Assembly: GCA_964492705.1 (NCBI GenBank)
Contig: CAZBLS010000002.1
Location: forward strand, 140-64,139
Reading direction: 5' to 3'
DNA length: 64,000 nt
Source of the DNA: an uncultured Oscillospiraceae bacterium
GTDB lineage: Bacteria > Bacillota > Clostridia > Christensenellales > QALW01
Of the stretch, positions 32,822 through 41,778 are shown piece after piece. Under the pieces are notes generated by a model. That model saw only the letters and a list, made by a program, of their open reading frames with translations. It was not told the origin of the DNA and searched no databases. Each line of letters begins with the position of its first letter. The first letter of the stretch is position 1. Made by a program: the position numbers and the translations under genes.

Positions 32822-32863
32822 TTTTTAAAAAACGAAAAGCGGAAATGCACAGAGCACTTCCGC
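32822..32863 (-). terminator. intrinsic terminator after rpmE
   Basis: On the minus strand: GCGGAAGTGC-tctgt-GCATTTCCGC followed by TTTTCGTTTTTT. Confidence 0.75.
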
Positions 32864-32887
32864 CGATTTTCGCCGATTTCGTAACTA

Positions 32888-33265
32888 TCAAAGTCCGTAT
32901 CTCTTCTTAAATTTGTCAACACGACCTGCAGAGTCAACGAACTTCTGCTTACCCGTATAAAAGGGATGGCACTTTGAGCAAATTTCAACAGAAAGAGAAT
33001 CCTTTACCGAGCCTGTTTCGAAAGTTTCGCCGCAAGCACACTTTACTGTTACCTTTTTGTAATCCGGATGTATACCGTATCTCTTCTTAAATTTGTCAAC
33101 ACGACCTGCAGAGTCAACGAACTTCTGCTTACCCGTATAAAAGGGATGGCACTTTGAGCAAATTTCAACAGAAAGAGAATCCTTTACCGAGCCTGTTTCG
33201 AAAGTTTCGCCGCAAGCACACTTTACTGTTACCTTTTTGTAATCCGGATGTATACCTTGTTTCAT
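32888..33265 (-). CDS. rpmE: 50S ribosomal protein L31 (Zn-ribbon type) carrying an in-frame duplication of residues 4-63 (125 aa instead of ~65 aa)
   Basis: MKQ + 2 x [[60 protein letters not shown]] + GL. GAGGTG Shine-Dalgarno upstream. Confidence 0.85.
32895..33256. repeat. perfect head-to-tail tandem duplication, 2 x 180 bp, inside rpmE
   Basis: 32895-33074 is identical base for base to 33075-33254. Identity continues 2 nt further (CC) as junction microhomology. Verified by aligning the printed sequence lines. Confidence 0.97.
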
Positions 33266-33319
33266 AATGGATTCACCTCATTCTTTACGGAAACTAATCC
33301 TTACTATTAAGCATCGGTT

Positions 33320-33348
33320 ATTATACTCTTAAACGCACTTTGTGTCAA
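33320..33348 (-). promoter_or_regulatory. consensus sigma-A promoter of rpmE
   Basis: On the minus strand: TTGACA (33343-33348), 17 nt, TATAAT (33320-33325). Confidence 0.7.
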
Positions 33349-33377: not shown

Positions 33378-34844
33378 TTACAGGAAGAAACATTCTGTGC
33401 CCAAAGTAGTATAATAAGTGCGGTTTTTCCCCGCCCAACAGGTGTATCTTACGGATACTGAACAGAAATACAAACAGTTACCAACGGGTTTTACGCCCAT
33501 ATACGCTTCTATTGCCGCATAGTAATTACTGTTGGAATAGGTTTCGTTCTTTAAAGTACTGTTGGCAGTTGAAAACTGATTTGGCGAGTAGATTATATCG
33601 TACACGGATGCGCCGGTACGCTTTACTCGGTTCATTATAACGCTTCCCACCGCCAACTGACATTTATATGAACTTCCGCCCACTTCTCTCTTTATTATTC
33701 TCGCAATAAGTCTTACGTCTTCCAACTGACTTTCCGAAAGAGTGGCAAGTGCGGAATTGACAACGTCCATATTGGCTGAATTATAACCGCTTACCGTTGC
33801 ACCGGTTGAAGTGCTTACGGAACCTGTACTCGGAGTGCTTCCGCCGAGAGCCGCCGAAATTTTGGCAAGCGTCTTACTGCCTGCAATACCGTCGGCACTG
33901 ATAGAATAGGCTTTTTGGAATGCGATTACCGCCTTTTTCGTCACCGAGCCGAATTCGCCCGTGGCAGTACCCGAAAAATAGCCTAATTTTTTCAAATTCT
34001 GCTGTAACTTTTTAACTTCACTGCCCGTATCTCCGAACCTGAGCGTGCCGGGTTTGGCAACAGAATCTTTAAGTTCACCATCGTCATCGTTGACCTTTGC
34101 CGCCACGGAATTAAGTGCCGTAACCGTAAGATTCGCAACCGTTCCCGTCTGGCTTATCTGATTGCTCTTTTGGAAGTTTTTTACCGCCGAAACGGTTATC
34201 GCTCCGTAATATCCCGTTACGTACTTTGAATCCAAGTATCCCAGTTGACACAAACGCTGTTGCAGTGCCTTTACTCCCGAATCTTCATCGCCTGCCTTGT
34301 AAGTCCTGTTTTCGTCAAGTTTGGTGATGTCGGAAAGTTCGTTTATGCGCTCTATTGTAAGTTTCGCCGCAACGCCCGTGGCGGAAATGCCGTGTTCCTT
34401 TTGGAACTTCTTTACCGCCGCCTCCGTAACGTCACCGTAATATCCCGTTACTTTGTCCTTTGCAAGATATCCCATATCCGCAAGTTTTTGCTGTAACGTT
34501 TTAACTTCACTGCCCTCGTTACCGTTTTTAAGTACCATAGAGCCGTCAATATTGGCGGTAAACAGGGCTTCTATCGTCTTTTCAGCCGCCACTCCCGTAC
34601 TGTTTATGTTCTTTGATTTCTGATATTCCTCAACTGCCGATTCGGTTTCCCGTCCGAAAAATCCCGTTACGTATTTTTCTTCCAAAAAGCCGTTTTCCGA
34701 AAGTTTTTGCTGTAACTCCTTAACTTCCGGTCCCTTACTGCCGATTTTTAATACGGACTCCGGCATAGCGTGTGCGGTCAGCACCGATGCCGTCAGTACC
34801 GTTATAAGTACGGCGGAAATCAGCAATGTCAGCCGTTTCTTCAT
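33378..34844 (-). CDS. cell-wall hydrolase: signal peptide, four PG_binding_1 repeats, C-terminal SleB/CwlJ-type (Hydrolase_2) domain
   Basis: 488 aa. Four repeats of the type G..G.EVK.LQQ.L...GYL. C-terminal ARIIKREVGGSSYKCQLAVGSVIMNRV...IYSPNQFS is typical of SleB-like cortex-lytic enzymes. Confidence 0.82.
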   Translation of the reverse strand: MKKRLTLLISAVLITVLTASVLTAHAMPESVLKIGSKGPEVKELQQKLSENGFLEEKYVTGFFGRETESAVEEYQKSKNINSTGVAAEKTIEALFTANIDGSMVLKNGNEGSEVKTLQQKLADMGYLAKDKVTGYYGDVTEAAVKKFQKEHGISATGVAAKLTIERINELSDITKLDENRTYKAGDEDSGVKALQQRLCQLGYLDSKYVTGYYGAITVSAVKNFQKSNQISQTGTVANLTVTALNSVAAKVNDDDGELKDSVAKPGTLRFGDTGSEVKKLQQNLKKLGYFSGTATGEFGSVTKKAVIAFQKAYSISADGIAGSKTLAKISAALGGSTPSTGSVSTSTGATVSGYNSANMDVVNSALATLSESQLEDVRLIARIIKREVGGSSYKCQLAVGSVIMNRVKRTGASVYDIIYSPNQFSTANSTLKNETYSNSNYYAAIEAYMGVKPVGNCLYFCSVSVRYTCWAGKNRTYYTTLGTECFFL

Positions 34845-36930: not shown

Positions 36931-39900
36931 ATGAAAAGATTTTTTAAAACGCTACCGCTGATATTAATGCTGATTGCCGTTTTTTGCGGTTGTGAAAGCG
37001 TTTCGGGTCAGCCATACAACGAAAACCTGCTTAAAAATGCAAGTTTTGAAATCACCGAAAACGGCAAATGTACCGATTGGGTTCTTGACCGCTACGATAC
37101 CGCTCAGTCAAGTAGCGGTTGCGGAAGCACGGAGTTTATAAACGCTCCCGACGGAAAAAACGTGCTTGCCGTAATTAACGGCGGTTTTAACGACAGCCGT
37201 TTTGTTCAGGAAGTAGAACTCGAACCCAATACTTACTATAAACTTTCCGCAAGGATCAAAACCGACGGAACGGAAAATTATTCGGTTGAATCCGGTGCAA
37301 ATATAAGTTTTCTTAAAACCTACTGTCGCAGTGAATTTATATCGGGTTACTCCGAGTGGACGGAAGTTGTGCTCTACGGCAAAACGGGCAAAAAAGTCAA
37401 AAGTGCAACCGTTGCTCTGCGCCTCGGATATTACAGTTCCGACTGCTCCGGAAGCGCATATTTTGACGATGTAAAACTCGAAAAAGTAAAAGAAGTGCCC
37501 GACAATGCCGACGTAGGCGATATTTCGGAATTTACTTTTTCTTCTTCCGCAAGCAGTGAAAGCAAGGACGACGGCAAAATCAAACTGTCGGTAGTTTTAA
37601 GGGGAATACTTTACTTCGGCATCCTCGCACCGGCACTTTTCTTTGCCTTTAAAAATTCAAAACATTTTACGCCCTCTGTTGCGTATATAATCATCGCCAT
37701 ATGCTTCTGTATAAGAGTTATGGCATCCGTTACATACACAGGCTTCGGCGTAGATATAAACTGTTTTTCGGCTTGGGCGCAAAAAATGGCTTCAAGCGGT
37801 CCGCTGACATTCTATTCCGACGGATATTTTTGTGACTATCCGCCCCTTTATATGTTGGTGCTCGGTCTCATTTCACTTATTTCCCCTGTGAACCTTAACA
37901 GCGGAATAGGTCTTACATTCCTTAAAATGCCGGCAATGCTTTGCGATATCATCACTGCCGTGCTGATAGTGAAAAAAGCAAAAAAATACGCAGGCGAAAA
38001 TATTGCTTCCGTTTTGGGCATACTTTATGCGCTCTTGCCCACGGTAATACTTAATTCCGCCGTATGGGGTCAGGTAGATTCCATTCTCGCCCTGTTTATG
38101 TTCCTTACGTTTATACTTATTGACGAAGACAAATTCGGTCTTTCCGTTGCCGTTTACGCAATAGGCTTGCTCCTTAAACCGCAGGCAGTGCTCTTCGGCC
38201 CCGTAATGCTGTTTGCCGCCGCAAGGGAATTTGCTCAAATAGGCAACGATTTTAAGGAAAACCGTGCTTCACTTGCAAAGAAAAGACTTGTCTTCGGCTT
38301 CGGAAGTCTGTTTATATCGGCGCTGATATTCGTTCTTCTGTCGCTTTTAATGCAAAACGGTCAAAGCGCATCGTGGCTGTGGGACAAGTATATGAACACC
38401 ATATCATCCTACGATTATGCCACACTGTCCTCTTTCGGTCTTATGGGACTTTTGGGCGGACAGTGGATTCCCTCCGACACGATTTACCTTTTTGGCATTT
38501 CTTACGGAACCCTCGGCACCGTGCTTACGTTACTCGTACTGCTTTCGTCGGTGGCATTTTATATTCTCGCAGTAAAAAATCAGGGTAATATAATTTCCGC
38601 AAAACACTTTTATCTTTTGGCCGCTTACACGGTTGCGGGTGTTGTTACCGTTTCTACCCGTACCCACGAAAGATATATGTTCCCTGTAATACTTATGCTG
38701 ATAGCATCGTTCTTCTGCTTTAAGGATATGCGTATGCTTTATTTAAGCATAGGCTACGCCTTTGTAAACTTTGTAAATACTGCAACGGTGCTGTACGTTT
38801 ACGAAGAATGCGGCGTGTATATGAGTGCCAAAGAGCCTATTATGCTGATTTTCTCCGCAGTAACGGTAATACTCTTTATACTTTTAACGCTTGTAACCGC
38901 CGATACGGTTTTAGGCAAAACGAAAAAGGAGTTTTTTATGAATAACGGATTTTTTACGGTAAACGGACATTTTTCCGAAAATACGGCAAACGGTGAAACT
39001 GCCGAGTGCGGTAAAAACGCCGAAAAGCCCGTAACAAAATACGATAAGCCTTTAAAGAAACTTTTTGCACGCAAGAGTTTTAAACTGCCGAAAGTAACGC
39101 TTAAAGATATACTTATTTGCGGTCTTATTACCGCTATATACGCCTGTGTTGCTTTTACCGATTTGGGTGATACAAAAGCGCCCCAAACTTTGTGGCTCAC
39201 TTCCTCTAACGAAAGTTATATTCTTTGCGATTTAGGCGAAGAAAAGAACATCGACTCAGTGGCGATAAATGCCTCTTCCTCGGGCAAAGTCAAAATTTAC
39301 ACTTCACAAAACGGCACCGATTTCGACCTTGCCGGCGAAACCGAACACTCCTACTATGCCGACGGCGAATGGGTAAACAGCGAACTTGTTTCTTCAAGCG
39401 CAAGATACGTAAAATTCGTTCCCCAAAAATCGACGGTACTGAACGAAGCGGTACTTCTTTCCAACGGCGAAACCGTAACACCCGTAAACGTTACTTCCAA
39501 CACAAATCCCATTGACGGCTCAAACGGCGACGGCAACCGTCTGTTCGATGCACAGTCAAGTTACGGTGTCCGATATAAAACACCCGAAACTTTCGCATCT
39601 CTCTCGGGCGAATACACTTTCACCCTTGAAGAAGGCGCCGTTTTAGGCGGAATATACGGATATTCCGCTTCCGATTGGGGCGGAACTCTTGAATTTGCAA
39701 ACTCCTCGGGCAACACCGTAGCGTATCTTGACATTTACGGTACTTCTTGGTGTTCCGCCGAAGTTTTCGACGGCATTGACTCTGAAAACAACATTTATAC
39801 CGTGCGGATAAACGAAAGCATTTCAGGCGAAGACTCGTTAAACGCAGGCGAGATAGTCTTTACCGATACCGACGGAAAAATCATAAACATTGTGTCCGCC

Positions 39901-41778
39901 ACAGGCGAAAACGTTGAAAAAGTTTTCGACGAACGGGAAACTTTTGCCGAATATTCTGCCGTTAAAGAAGCATCCGATACGGGAGAGTCTTTCGTTATAT
40001 CTTCCGCCTCCGATTGGGTCATTGCCGACTTCGGTGAAGTAAAGCAAGTGAACAGAGGATATTTTTACACAAGCGTATGCTCGGGGTCCTTTGATGTATA
40101 CTTTTCAAAGGACGGCGAAAATTGGACTGTTGCCGAAAAGCACACCGTTGATGCAGGCGACCTATACTATTGGCACGGTCTTCCCTCCGACGGCGGAACT
40201 TATACCGACCTTAACACCCGTTTTGTGGCCGTATGTACTTCAATTACCGATATGCGCATACTTGAAATGGGATTTTTCGAAAACAGCGACGATACAAGCG
40301 TTATCGAAATAAAGAACATTACTTCATCTTCCTCGGGTGAAAAGGGCGGAGGAAATATCTTTGACGAACAGTCCCTTGTCCCCACCCGTCCCTCGTATAT
40401 GAACAGTATGTACTTTGACGAAATATACCACGCCCGTACCGCCTACGAAAACCTTAACGGACTTAATATTTACGAATGGACACATCCGCCTCTGGGCAAA
40501 GACATAATGTCACTGAGCATACAAATCTTCGGTATGACGCCTTTCGGTTGGCGCTTTGCAGGTACTCTTGCAGGCGTACTTATGGTTCCGGCAATGTATT
40601 TTGTGGGCTTGCTTATGTTCCGTAAACGTACTTGGGCATCATTGCTTGCGGTCATAATGAGCCTTGACGGTATGCACTTTGTACAAACCCGTCTTGCCAC
40701 CATAGATTCCTACGGCGTACTTTTTATAATACTGATGTTCCTGTTTATGTATTGGTATTACAGTATCAGTTTTTACGATATGCCCCTTACAAAGACTTTC
40801 CTGCCCTTGGGGCTTTGCGGTCTTGCATTCGGTCTCGGTGCCGCAAGCAAGTGGATATGCCTCTACGCAGGCGCAGGCTTGGCGGTTATATTCTTTATTA
40901 CTCTCGCAAGACGTTACAGAGAATACCGACTTGCAAAATCAGCAGTGTACAATGCAGAGGGTGAAGAAAAGAAGTATCTTCAACATATAATCCGTACGTT
41001 CCCCCTGTACACTGCCGAAACTGTTCTGTTCTGCATAGGTGCGTTTATTATCGTGCCTCTCATAATCTACTGTGCATCCTATTTCCCCTACTTTAATGCC
41101 GAGGGCGAAACCCGTGCGTGGTACGAGATAATCATTGACAATCAGTTTGATATGTTCAACTATCACTCGAAATTACAGGCGACACATCCTTTCCAATCCG
41201 ATTGGTATACTTGGCCTATAATTTACCGTCCTATCTACTATTATGCAGGCAAGGAACTTCCCGATGCAAGCACGGTGGAATGCATTTCTTCTTTCGGAAA
41301 TCCCGTAATATGGTATATGGGTCTTGTATCGACGATATTCGGATTTGTTGTTCTCTTGCGCAGGCTTTTGGATAACAAAAAAGTTACCGTAAAAGATTTC
41401 GGCACAAATAAATTCGAACGTCTGTTCTCATCAGGTGACGAGGACCTTGCCGATGCAACCGAACGTGATACACGGTTGCTTATATTCCTTGCTTTGGGCG
41501 TTGCGTGCAACCTGTTACCGTGGGTAGGAATAAGCAGATGTATATTCATCTACCACTACTTTGCAACAGTTCCCTTTATAATGATATTTACGGTTTATAC
41601 GTTGTGCAACGTATGCCGTAAAAACAAAAAGTTGGGTATTGCACTTACGGTGCTCTTTATCCTTTGCGCTCTTGTACTGTTTATAATGTTTAAGCCCATT
41701 TGGACGGGAACCGCAGTTTCAAAAGAATACGTACGCACTTATCTGCGGTGGTTCGATTCTTGGGTATTCGGAGTATAA
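36931..41778 (+). CDS. giant (1615 aa) polytopic membrane protein: CBM-like module, GT-C module 1 (ALG6/ALG8- or DUF2029-like), discoidin (F5/8 type C)-like domains, GT-C module 2 (GT39/PMT-like)
   Basis: N-terminal signal/lipobox-like VFCGC. NLLKNASFE...AYFDDVKLEKV is a CBM-like sandwich. The multi-TM block has FCDYPPLYML (about nt 37829-37850). Two jelly-roll-like segments (WLTSSNESYILCDLGEEKNIDSVAI...ARYVKFVP and WVIADFGEVKQVNRGYFY...RILEMGFF). MYFDEIYHARTAYE...EWTHPPLGK (about nt 40409-40500) is typical of PMT/GT39, followed by more TMs. Confidence 0.7.
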   Translation: MKRFFKTLPLILMLIAVFCGCESVSGQPYNENLLKNASFEITENGKCTDWVLDRYDTAQSSSGCGSTEFINAPDGKNVLAVINGGFNDSRFVQEVELEPNTYYKLSARIKTDGTENYSVESGANISFLKTYCRSEFISGYSEWTEVVLYGKTGKKVKSATVALRLGYYSSDCSGSAYFDDVKLEKVKEVPDNADVGDISEFTFSSSASSESKDDGKIKLSVVLRGILYFGILAPALFFAFKNSKHFTPSVAYIIIAICFCIRVMASVTYTGFGVDINCFSAWAQKMASSGPLTFYSDGYFCDYPPLYMLVLGLISLISPVNLNSGIGLTFLKMPAMLCDIITAVLIVKKAKKYAGENIASVLGILYALLPTVILNSAVWGQVDSILALFMFLTFILIDEDKFGLSVAVYAIGLLLKPQAVLFGPVMLFAAAREFAQIGNDFKENRASLAKKRLVFGFGSLFISALIFVLLSLLMQNGQSASWLWDKYMNTISSYDYATLSSFGLMGLLGGQWIPSDTIYLFGISYGTLGTVLTLLVLLSSVAFYILAVKNQGNIISAKHFYLLAAYTVAGVVTVSTRTHERYMFPVILMLIASFFCFKDMRMLYLSIGYAFVNFVNTATVLYVYEECGVYMSAKEPIMLIFSAVTVILFILLTLVTADTVLGKTKKEFFMNNGFFTVNGHFSENTANGETAECGKNAEKPVTKYDKPLKKLFARKSFKLPKVTLKDILICGLITAIYACVAFTDLGDTKAPQTLWLTSSNESYILCDLGEEKNIDSVAINASSSGKVKIYTSQNGTDFDLAGETEHSYYADGEWVNSELVSSSARYVKFVPQKSTVLNEAVLLSNGETVTPVNVTSNTNPIDGSNGDGNRLFDAQSSYGVRYKTPETFASLSGEYTFTLEEGAVLGGIYGYSASDWGGTLEFANSSGNTVAYLDIYGTSWCSAEVFDGIDSENNIYTVRINESISGEDSLNAGEIVFTDTDGKIINIVSATGENVEKVFDERETFAEYSAVKEASDTGESFVISSASDWVIADFGEVKQVNRGYFYTSVCSGSFDVYFSKDGENWTVAEKHTVDAGDLYYWHGLPSDGGTYTDLNTRFVAVCTSITDMRILEMGFFENSDDTSVIEIKNITSSSSGEKGGGNIFDEQSLVPTRPSYMNSMYFDEIYHARTAYENLNGLNIYEWTHPPLGKDIMSLSIQIFGMTPFGWRFAGTLAGVLMVPAMYFVGLLMFRKRTWASLLAVIMSLDGMHFVQTRLATIDSYGVLFIILMFLFMYWYYSISFYDMPLTKTFLPLGLCGLAFGLGAASKWICLYAGAGLAVIFFITLARRYREYRLAKSAVYNAEGEEKKYLQHIIRTFPLYTAETVLFCIGAFIIVPLIIYCASYFPYFNAEGETRAWYEIIIDNQFDMFNYHSKLQATHPFQSDWYTWPIIYRPIYYYAGKELPDASTVECISSFGNPVIWYMGLVSTIFGFVVLLRRLLDNKKVTVKDFGTNKFERLFSSGDEDLADATERDTRLLIFLALGVACNLLPWVGISRCIFIYHYFATVPFIMIFTVYTLCNVCRKNKKLGIALTVLFILCALVLFIMFKPIWTGTAVSKEYVRTYLRWFDSWVFGV

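Follow-up and report, generated by a model that had tools for sequence, protein, structure and literature searches.

The rpmE locus

The window analysed here, a stretch of 64,000 nucleotides of DNA from an uncultured Clostridia bacterium, carries on its minus strand an rpmE gene for the ribosomal protein bL31 (Table 1). The neighbours of rpmE are housekeeping genes which code for a SleB-like cell-wall hydrolase with four PG_binding_1 repeats, a flavin reductase, an Fe-alcohol dehydrogenase, ArgS, a YlqF-type GTPase, RNase HII and DNA polymerase I, and the same gene order around rpmE is found in MAGs of uncultured human-gut Clostridia. A second L31 gene, type B included, was not found in the 64-kb window. 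With both the gathering and permissive thresholds an Rfam scan returned no L31 leader family at rpmE.

Table 1. Positions of rpmE, its repeat units and its expression signals in the window
Feature	Position	Strand	Basis or remark
rpmE ORF as assembled, 125 aa and stop, two L31 domains head to tail	32888..33265	-	ORF list, Pfam, TIGR00105
First (N-terminal) repeat unit, codons 4-63	33075..33254	-	Tandem Repeats Finder and string comparison
Second repeat unit, codons 64-123, identical to the first in 180/180 bases	32895..33074	-	Tandem Repeats Finder and string comparison
CC microhomology, unit start and sequence past the second unit; breakpoint ambiguous by 2 nt	33255..33256	.	
Single sigma-70-type promoter, TTGACA-17-TATAAT, 12/12 matches	33320..33348	-	Same sequence in conspecific L012
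Shine-Dalgarno GAGGTG, 8 nt before the ATG (33265..33263)	33274..33279	-	Kept in all aligned relatives
Single intrinsic terminator, 11-pair stem with 6 G-C pairs, loop of 5, T run	32828..32864	-	Identical in L012

Some minor features of the surroundings may be recorded. A small direct repeat (CGCCGATTT, two copies with a period of 10 nt, 32861-32879) follows the stop codon of rpmE ahead of the terminator and reaches into the terminator stem; the conspecific contig L012 has it as well, and it is absent from the sister species. The SleB-like hydrolase gene just upstream of rpmE (33378-34844, minus strand, 488 aa) contains its four PG_binding_1 repeats at 34167-34670, where the DNA of the repeats is 67-80% identical among themselves. 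Such an internal repeat is old and diverged, unlike the rpmE duplication described below, which shows no divergence at all. On the plus strand, 36931-41778 codes for a protein of 1,615 aa with a PMT / PMT_4TMC (protein-O-mannosyltransferase-like) C-terminal region and an F5/8 type C (discoidin) domain; such an architecture is unusual for a bacterium of the gut Clostridia.

A perfect tandem duplication within rpmE

Tandem Repeats Finder reports one array at rpmE (32895-33256, period 180, 2.0 copies, 100% matches, 0 indels, score 724), and by direct string comparison the two units agree in every base. The repeat lies wholly within the open reading frame and keeps the frame. Its two copies are arranged head to tail at a spacing of exactly 180 bp with no spacer, and the two bases past the second unit (CC, or GG on the coding strand) are again the first two bases of the unit, i.e., there is an overlap or microhomology of 2 nt. 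At the junction of copy 1 and copy 2 the coding strand reads TAC GGT ATA. The corresponding 30-mer of the doubled gene is AAGAAGAGATACGGTATACATCCGGATTAC, and the wild-type boundaries of the single-copy gene are AAACAAGGTATACATCC and GAGATACGGACTTTGATAG. That a perfect repeat of 180 bp should arise by chance is out of the question. In an exhaustive scan for units of 15-1000 bp it was the sole perfect tandem duplication of the 64 kb, and the window contains 0 N. We also looked at the endpoints of the duplication for inverted repeats and quasi-palindromes, which are possible drivers of template switching, and found none tied to the breakpoints.

The predicted product reads codon by codon M1-K2-Q3, G4..Y63, an identical G64..Y123, G124-L125 and stop, which can be written as MKQ-[G4..Y63]x2-GL. 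Both the Pfam model PF01197 (E 1.5e-66, 220.9 bits with a cut-off of 27) and the NCBIfam equivalog TIGR00105 (206.2 bits with a cut-off of 38.35) match this protein in two stretches. The cysteines of the CxC...CxxC zinc motif are found at positions 16, 18, 36 and 39 and again at 76, 78, 96 and 99. In an alignment of 28 homologues these columns are invariant, marking the protein as type A as opposed to type B, and each half of the doubled protein has every invariant L31 residue of that alignment. The fusion point sits where natural L31 homologues have variable tails of 3-9 residues. With 125 aa and two domains the open reading frame departs from the single-domain L31 form of about 65-80 residues, to which the conspecific allele of 65 aa belongs; the mass is predicted to be 14,037 Da when doubled and 7,306 Da in single copy. 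An AlphaFold2 model of the free 125-aa protein was of low confidence (mean pLDDT 50.5, pTM 0.21).

An earlier note on this DNA had described a perfect in-frame 180-bp duplication of codons 4-63, the CC/GG microhomology with the TAC GGT ATA junction, a head-to-tail double L31 of 125 aa with two complete zinc motifs, and a promoter, Shine-Dalgarno sequence and terminator in single copy. Tandem Repeats Finder together with the string comparison bears out the first of these statements and direct reading the second; the two family models and the cysteine positions agree with the third, and the expression signals are indeed single (Table 1).

The single-copy form of the gene product compares well with a known protein. 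It aligns over residues 1-65 with bL31 type A of Bacillus subtilis (RpmE, seen in 70S structures, 3j9w chain B3; E 9.8e-31), with which it has in common the CxC...CxxC motif and the length class. The window gene as assembled, in contrast, consists of two fused units with 125 aa in all, and we found no solved or predicted L31 of such a form.

Search for a doubled L31 in public sequence data

Among about 15 billion proteins the exact 125-aa sequence is a singleton, found on one NCBI contig of 64,390 bp; the collapsed 65-aa protein is present on 147 contigs from four sources. With a word-indexed search of 5.8 billion clusters no match besides the query itself covered more than 62% of the query, and there was no full-length doubled L31 among the 7,545 matches. 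An exhaustive phmmer search of 1.84 billion representatives gave a best score of 124 bits, which is the level of a single domain, as compared to 281 bits for the doubled protein against itself. The junction, searched as a degenerate 30-mer, was absent from the 185,579 species-representative genomes of GTDB and from the JGI metagenome collection. The doubled L31 architecture is thus without counterpart in public data. Literature searches on tandem duplications of rpmE and on in-frame duplications in ribosomal proteins returned nothing relevant.

Several candidates for a longer L31 were set aside. The L31 matches of 81-157 aa owe their length to miscalled starts, read-through tails or low-complexity extensions and are not two-domain proteins. 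Chain l of the structure 7nbu is annotated as one molecule of 148 residues named 'L16,L31' with L31 at residues 83-147. We dropped it as an earlier example of an L31 fused at its N-terminus; a fusion is nowhere mentioned in the paper (PMC9098466), and the annotation is probably a quirk of the deposition.

Three partial internal duplications of L31 do exist in public data, and each of them is a singleton on one contig. The protein P0139 (89 aa) carries a perfect in-frame duplication of 51 bp, which repeats HPDYFQTTVKCACGNV, on a 2-kb contig of JGI 3300041085 (L020, 865-967). P0125 (113 aa) goes back to a perfect duplication of 72 bp on the contig L021 (JARCCX010202331.1 of GCA_029782595.1), and P0122 (98 aa) to an in-frame duplication of 96 bp with 83% matches (L022, 2025-2215), which creates a second partial CxC...CxxC region. 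P0125 and P0122 both come from the NCBI metagenome assembly GCA_029782595.1. Like the window gene, all three are in-frame tandem duplications inside rpmE; unlike it, they repeat only 16-32 residues of the N-terminal zinc-ribbon region and not the whole protein. The duplication in P0122 may be an older real one or a chimera of two strains.

Conspecific strains and sister species

By an exact look-up of the neighbouring proteins of the window we located contigs of the same species (L012-L017) from three independent runs, SRR17221344, SRR17221342 and SRR22923222. Their identity to the window is 99.8-100% on either side of rpmE, and they carry a single-copy rpmE of 65 aa. At rpmE they differ from the window by exactly one missing unit of 180 bp, with no base differences inside the gene. 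When one unit is removed from the window, the alignment with L016 runs without gaps over 4,038 bp with 4 SNPs, none of them in rpmE, and in L012 the promoter, leader, gene and terminator are the same as in the window apart from the single unit. Per 4 kb, the four strains are 1-4 SNPs apart from one another. Two SNPs are private to the window, which therefore represents a distinct but very close strain. As strains so nearly identical are single-copy, the duplication must be younger than a divergence of about 0.1%, whether it came about in a living cell or computationally.

The species is rare, and only three Logan runs show it. The exact flavin reductase allele of the window had no other occurrence in the exact protein look-up, and a 44-mer specific for the lineage had no matches in the JGI metagenomes.

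Eleven further loci (L001-L011) have flanking genes that are only about 78% identical to those of the window. They were therefore dropped as comparators within the species and assigned to sister species, where they can be used for the architecture only. Their rpmE DNA is about 88-93% identical to that of the window, and in all eleven the gene is single-copy with 65 aa. The longest exact stretch that the window rpmE has in common with a sister-species rpmE is 38 nt (L001 and L010), or 53 nt with L011. The 38-nt stretch corresponds to 33217-33254, with its copy at 33037-33074, and its start coincides precisely with the left edge of the unit (codon 4, first base).

The comparison with rpmE of related genomes had been proposed in the earlier note, and its outcome bears directly on the idea that a two-domain L31 is a conserved, selected architectural variant kept in this lineage. 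Both halves are complete and in frame, as one would expect of such a protein. However, it is absent from three conspecific strains at about 99.9% identity and from the eleven sister-species loci, the sequence collections hold neither its junction nor a protein scoring above the level of a single domain, and the two copies have not diverged at a single position. A conserved two-domain L31 is thus highly improbable and can be regarded as effectively refuted. As judged from the sequences compared here, the duplication is private to one assembly and is not a conserved feature.

Real mutation or artefact of assembly

The earlier note had left the choice between a very recent event and an assembly artefact. 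The same alternative stands, now better bounded by the three single-copy conspecific samples and by the lack of a counterpart elsewhere. We lean towards a very recent real duplication that has become fixed or has reached an appreciable frequency in the population that was sampled. According to this proposal an ordinary bL31 gene of type A (zinc-binding), belonging to an uncultured Clostridia species of the human gut, would have gained in one strain a recent head-to-tail duplication of 180 bp. Replication slippage or unequal sister-strand exchange would be the most likely mechanism, primed by the GG microhomology of 2 nt between codon 4 (GGT) and codon 64 (GGA), and a considerable part of the sequenced DNA would carry the duplication, whether fixed or not.

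Several findings speak for a real event. The duplication is in frame, which by chance happens in 1/3 of cases, and has at least 2 nt of microhomology at the junction (1/16 by chance), although this is weak evidence. The closest relatives (L012-L017) carry the ancestral unduplicated allele, and the duplication is clean, solitary and located in the middle of a contig without gaps. By the way in which de Bruijn and long-read assemblers work, a two-copy tandem within a contig should come only from reads which contain the junction, and the main route to such a tandem that is independent of such reads is the joining of overlapping contig ends after the assembly. We infer a junction present in real DNA. 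It speaks against a real event that the doubled protein is a singleton, as are the other internally duplicated L31 proteins. The zero divergence between the copies, too, counts against it, being also exactly what an artefact would give.

It is quite possible, on the other hand, that the genome is single-copy and that the second unit was created during or after the assembly, either when two contig ends with an overlap of 180 bp were put together head to tail or through a tool for scaffolding, merging, gap closing or polishing. The points just named, a singleton with identical copies, fit this explanation, and so does the finding that every conspecific contig is single-copy with an identical rpmE sequence. 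Moreover, perfect artefactual tandems are demonstrably present in deposited metagenome assemblies and even in the same gene family. In the 1.9-kb contig L021, four overlapping perfect tandem duplications (periods 77, 161, 141 and 72, all 100%) lie within positions 1-741, where they cover the region upstream of the L31 gene as well as its start, and yield P0125. This is assembler stutter and a clear artefact; therefore perfect tandem duplications in deposited assemblies can be purely artefactual. The window does not have the L021 pattern, with its single clean duplication in 64 kb as compared to four in 1.9 kb. The absence of any other such repeat and of any N from the window argues against an artefact, as does the conjunction of frame and junction microhomology, for which a random join would have a combined probability of about 1/48. 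The unit length of 180 bp is also unlike the usual k-mer overlap lengths of assemblers.

The conservation of rpmE could work in favour of an artefact as well, since in metagenome graphs the exact stretches of 38-53 nt common to sister species make it more likely that contigs break within the gene. One of these stretches begins at the left edge of the unit, a coincidence with an estimated chance of about 0.2. This is weak evidence and mechanistically insufficient for making a loop; collinear sharing between species gives bubbles in the assembly graph and not loops. The 'artificial duplication' of the TRITEX paper was considered as a parallel and rejected; it concerns BAC overlaps and is not on point.

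Should the duplication be an artefact, it calls for caution, as a false 'two-domain L31' would already be in the protein databases as a singleton cluster beside at least three internally duplicated L31 entries. If the junction is real, the locus would show a domain doubling in a ribosomal protein caught at time zero. Real or not, it defines no new family or mechanism.

Comparison with other duplicated ribosomal proteins

In-frame tandem changes within ribosomal protein genes are familiar from another context. Macrolides select small in-frame duplications and insertions in rplV (uL22) and rplD (uL4). These resemble the rpmE duplication in being in-frame tandems within a ribosomal protein gene that arose as recent mutations in single strains. 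They differ from it in comprising a few codons of an exit-tunnel loop, with a known selective advantage, whereas in rpmE the whole core of 60 codons is repeated.

The known way for a bacterium to two L31 sequences are paralogous pairs of a type A RpmE and a type B protein (YkgM/YtiA/RpmE2; PMC7363858, PMC13343924). These pairs are separate, diverged genes under zinc/Zur control with one protein per ribosome, whereas in the window two identical type A units stand in one predicted polypeptide and no type B gene is present.

Expected consequences for bL31 function

The N-domain of bL31 binds uL5 and 5S rRNA at the 50S subunit's central protuberance, and the C-terminal part binds uS13, uS14, uS19 and 16S rRNA on the head of the 30S subunit, forming the bridges B1b/B1c; in the E. 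coli protein the last eight residues matter for subunit association (PMC7297116, PMC9966373). The earlier note had counted the protein among the essential machinery. This is overstated, as rpmE is nonessential in E. coli, where knockouts are viable and slow-growing with weakened subunit association (PMC7297116, PMC9966373).

With one promoter and one Shine-Dalgarno sequence the gene as assembled would drive one polypeptide of 125 aa, MKQ-[G4..Y63]-[G4..Y63]-GL. Copy 1 would keep the native N-terminus and have its tail fused to copy 2, and copy 2 would keep the native free C-terminus and have its N-terminus fused. From the known contacts of bL31 one would expect at most one N-domain in the uL5/5S rRNA site and one C-tail extending to the head of the 30S subunit; the remaining half would hang loose within or close to the intersubunit space. 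The doubled protein may be neutral, mildly harmful or non-functional. Model bacteria can do without rpmE, so that a living strain would be consistent with each of these outcomes, and for the same reason the viability of the strain does not imply that the doubled protein is functional. There is no sign of inheritance, selection or function for the doubled L31.

With a perfect tandem of 180 bp, recombination between the direct repeats should make precise reversion far faster than point mutation. The doubled allele should therefore be unstable, because such recombination restores the wild type precisely, and a mixed population is to be expected if the allele is real. With a real junction the rate of reversion should be measurable, and the strain would provide a natural test of how much extra mass is tolerated at the bridge site of bL31.

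That the duplication is not only real but also fixed in the strain, translated and incorporated into ribosomes we consider unlikely. If this were true, there would be a natural ribosome in which the intersubunit bridge protein bL31 bears another full copy of itself with its zinc motif (+6.7 kDa), placed between the central protuberance and the head of the 30S subunit. No whole ribosomal protein doubled head to tail in nature would have preceded it, and the B1b/B1c site would be shown to tolerate doubling.

As a last observation, a 10-nt stretch which spans the start codon of rpmE together with the bases immediately upstream (33265-33274; in the mRNA GAAUCCAUUA) is 90% complementary to codons 27-30 (UAAAGGAUUC). 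Through the duplication the complementary partner occurs twice, at 33177-33186 and at 32997-33006. Possibly an mRNA structure that occludes the start is formed, or the complementarity may be due to chance.
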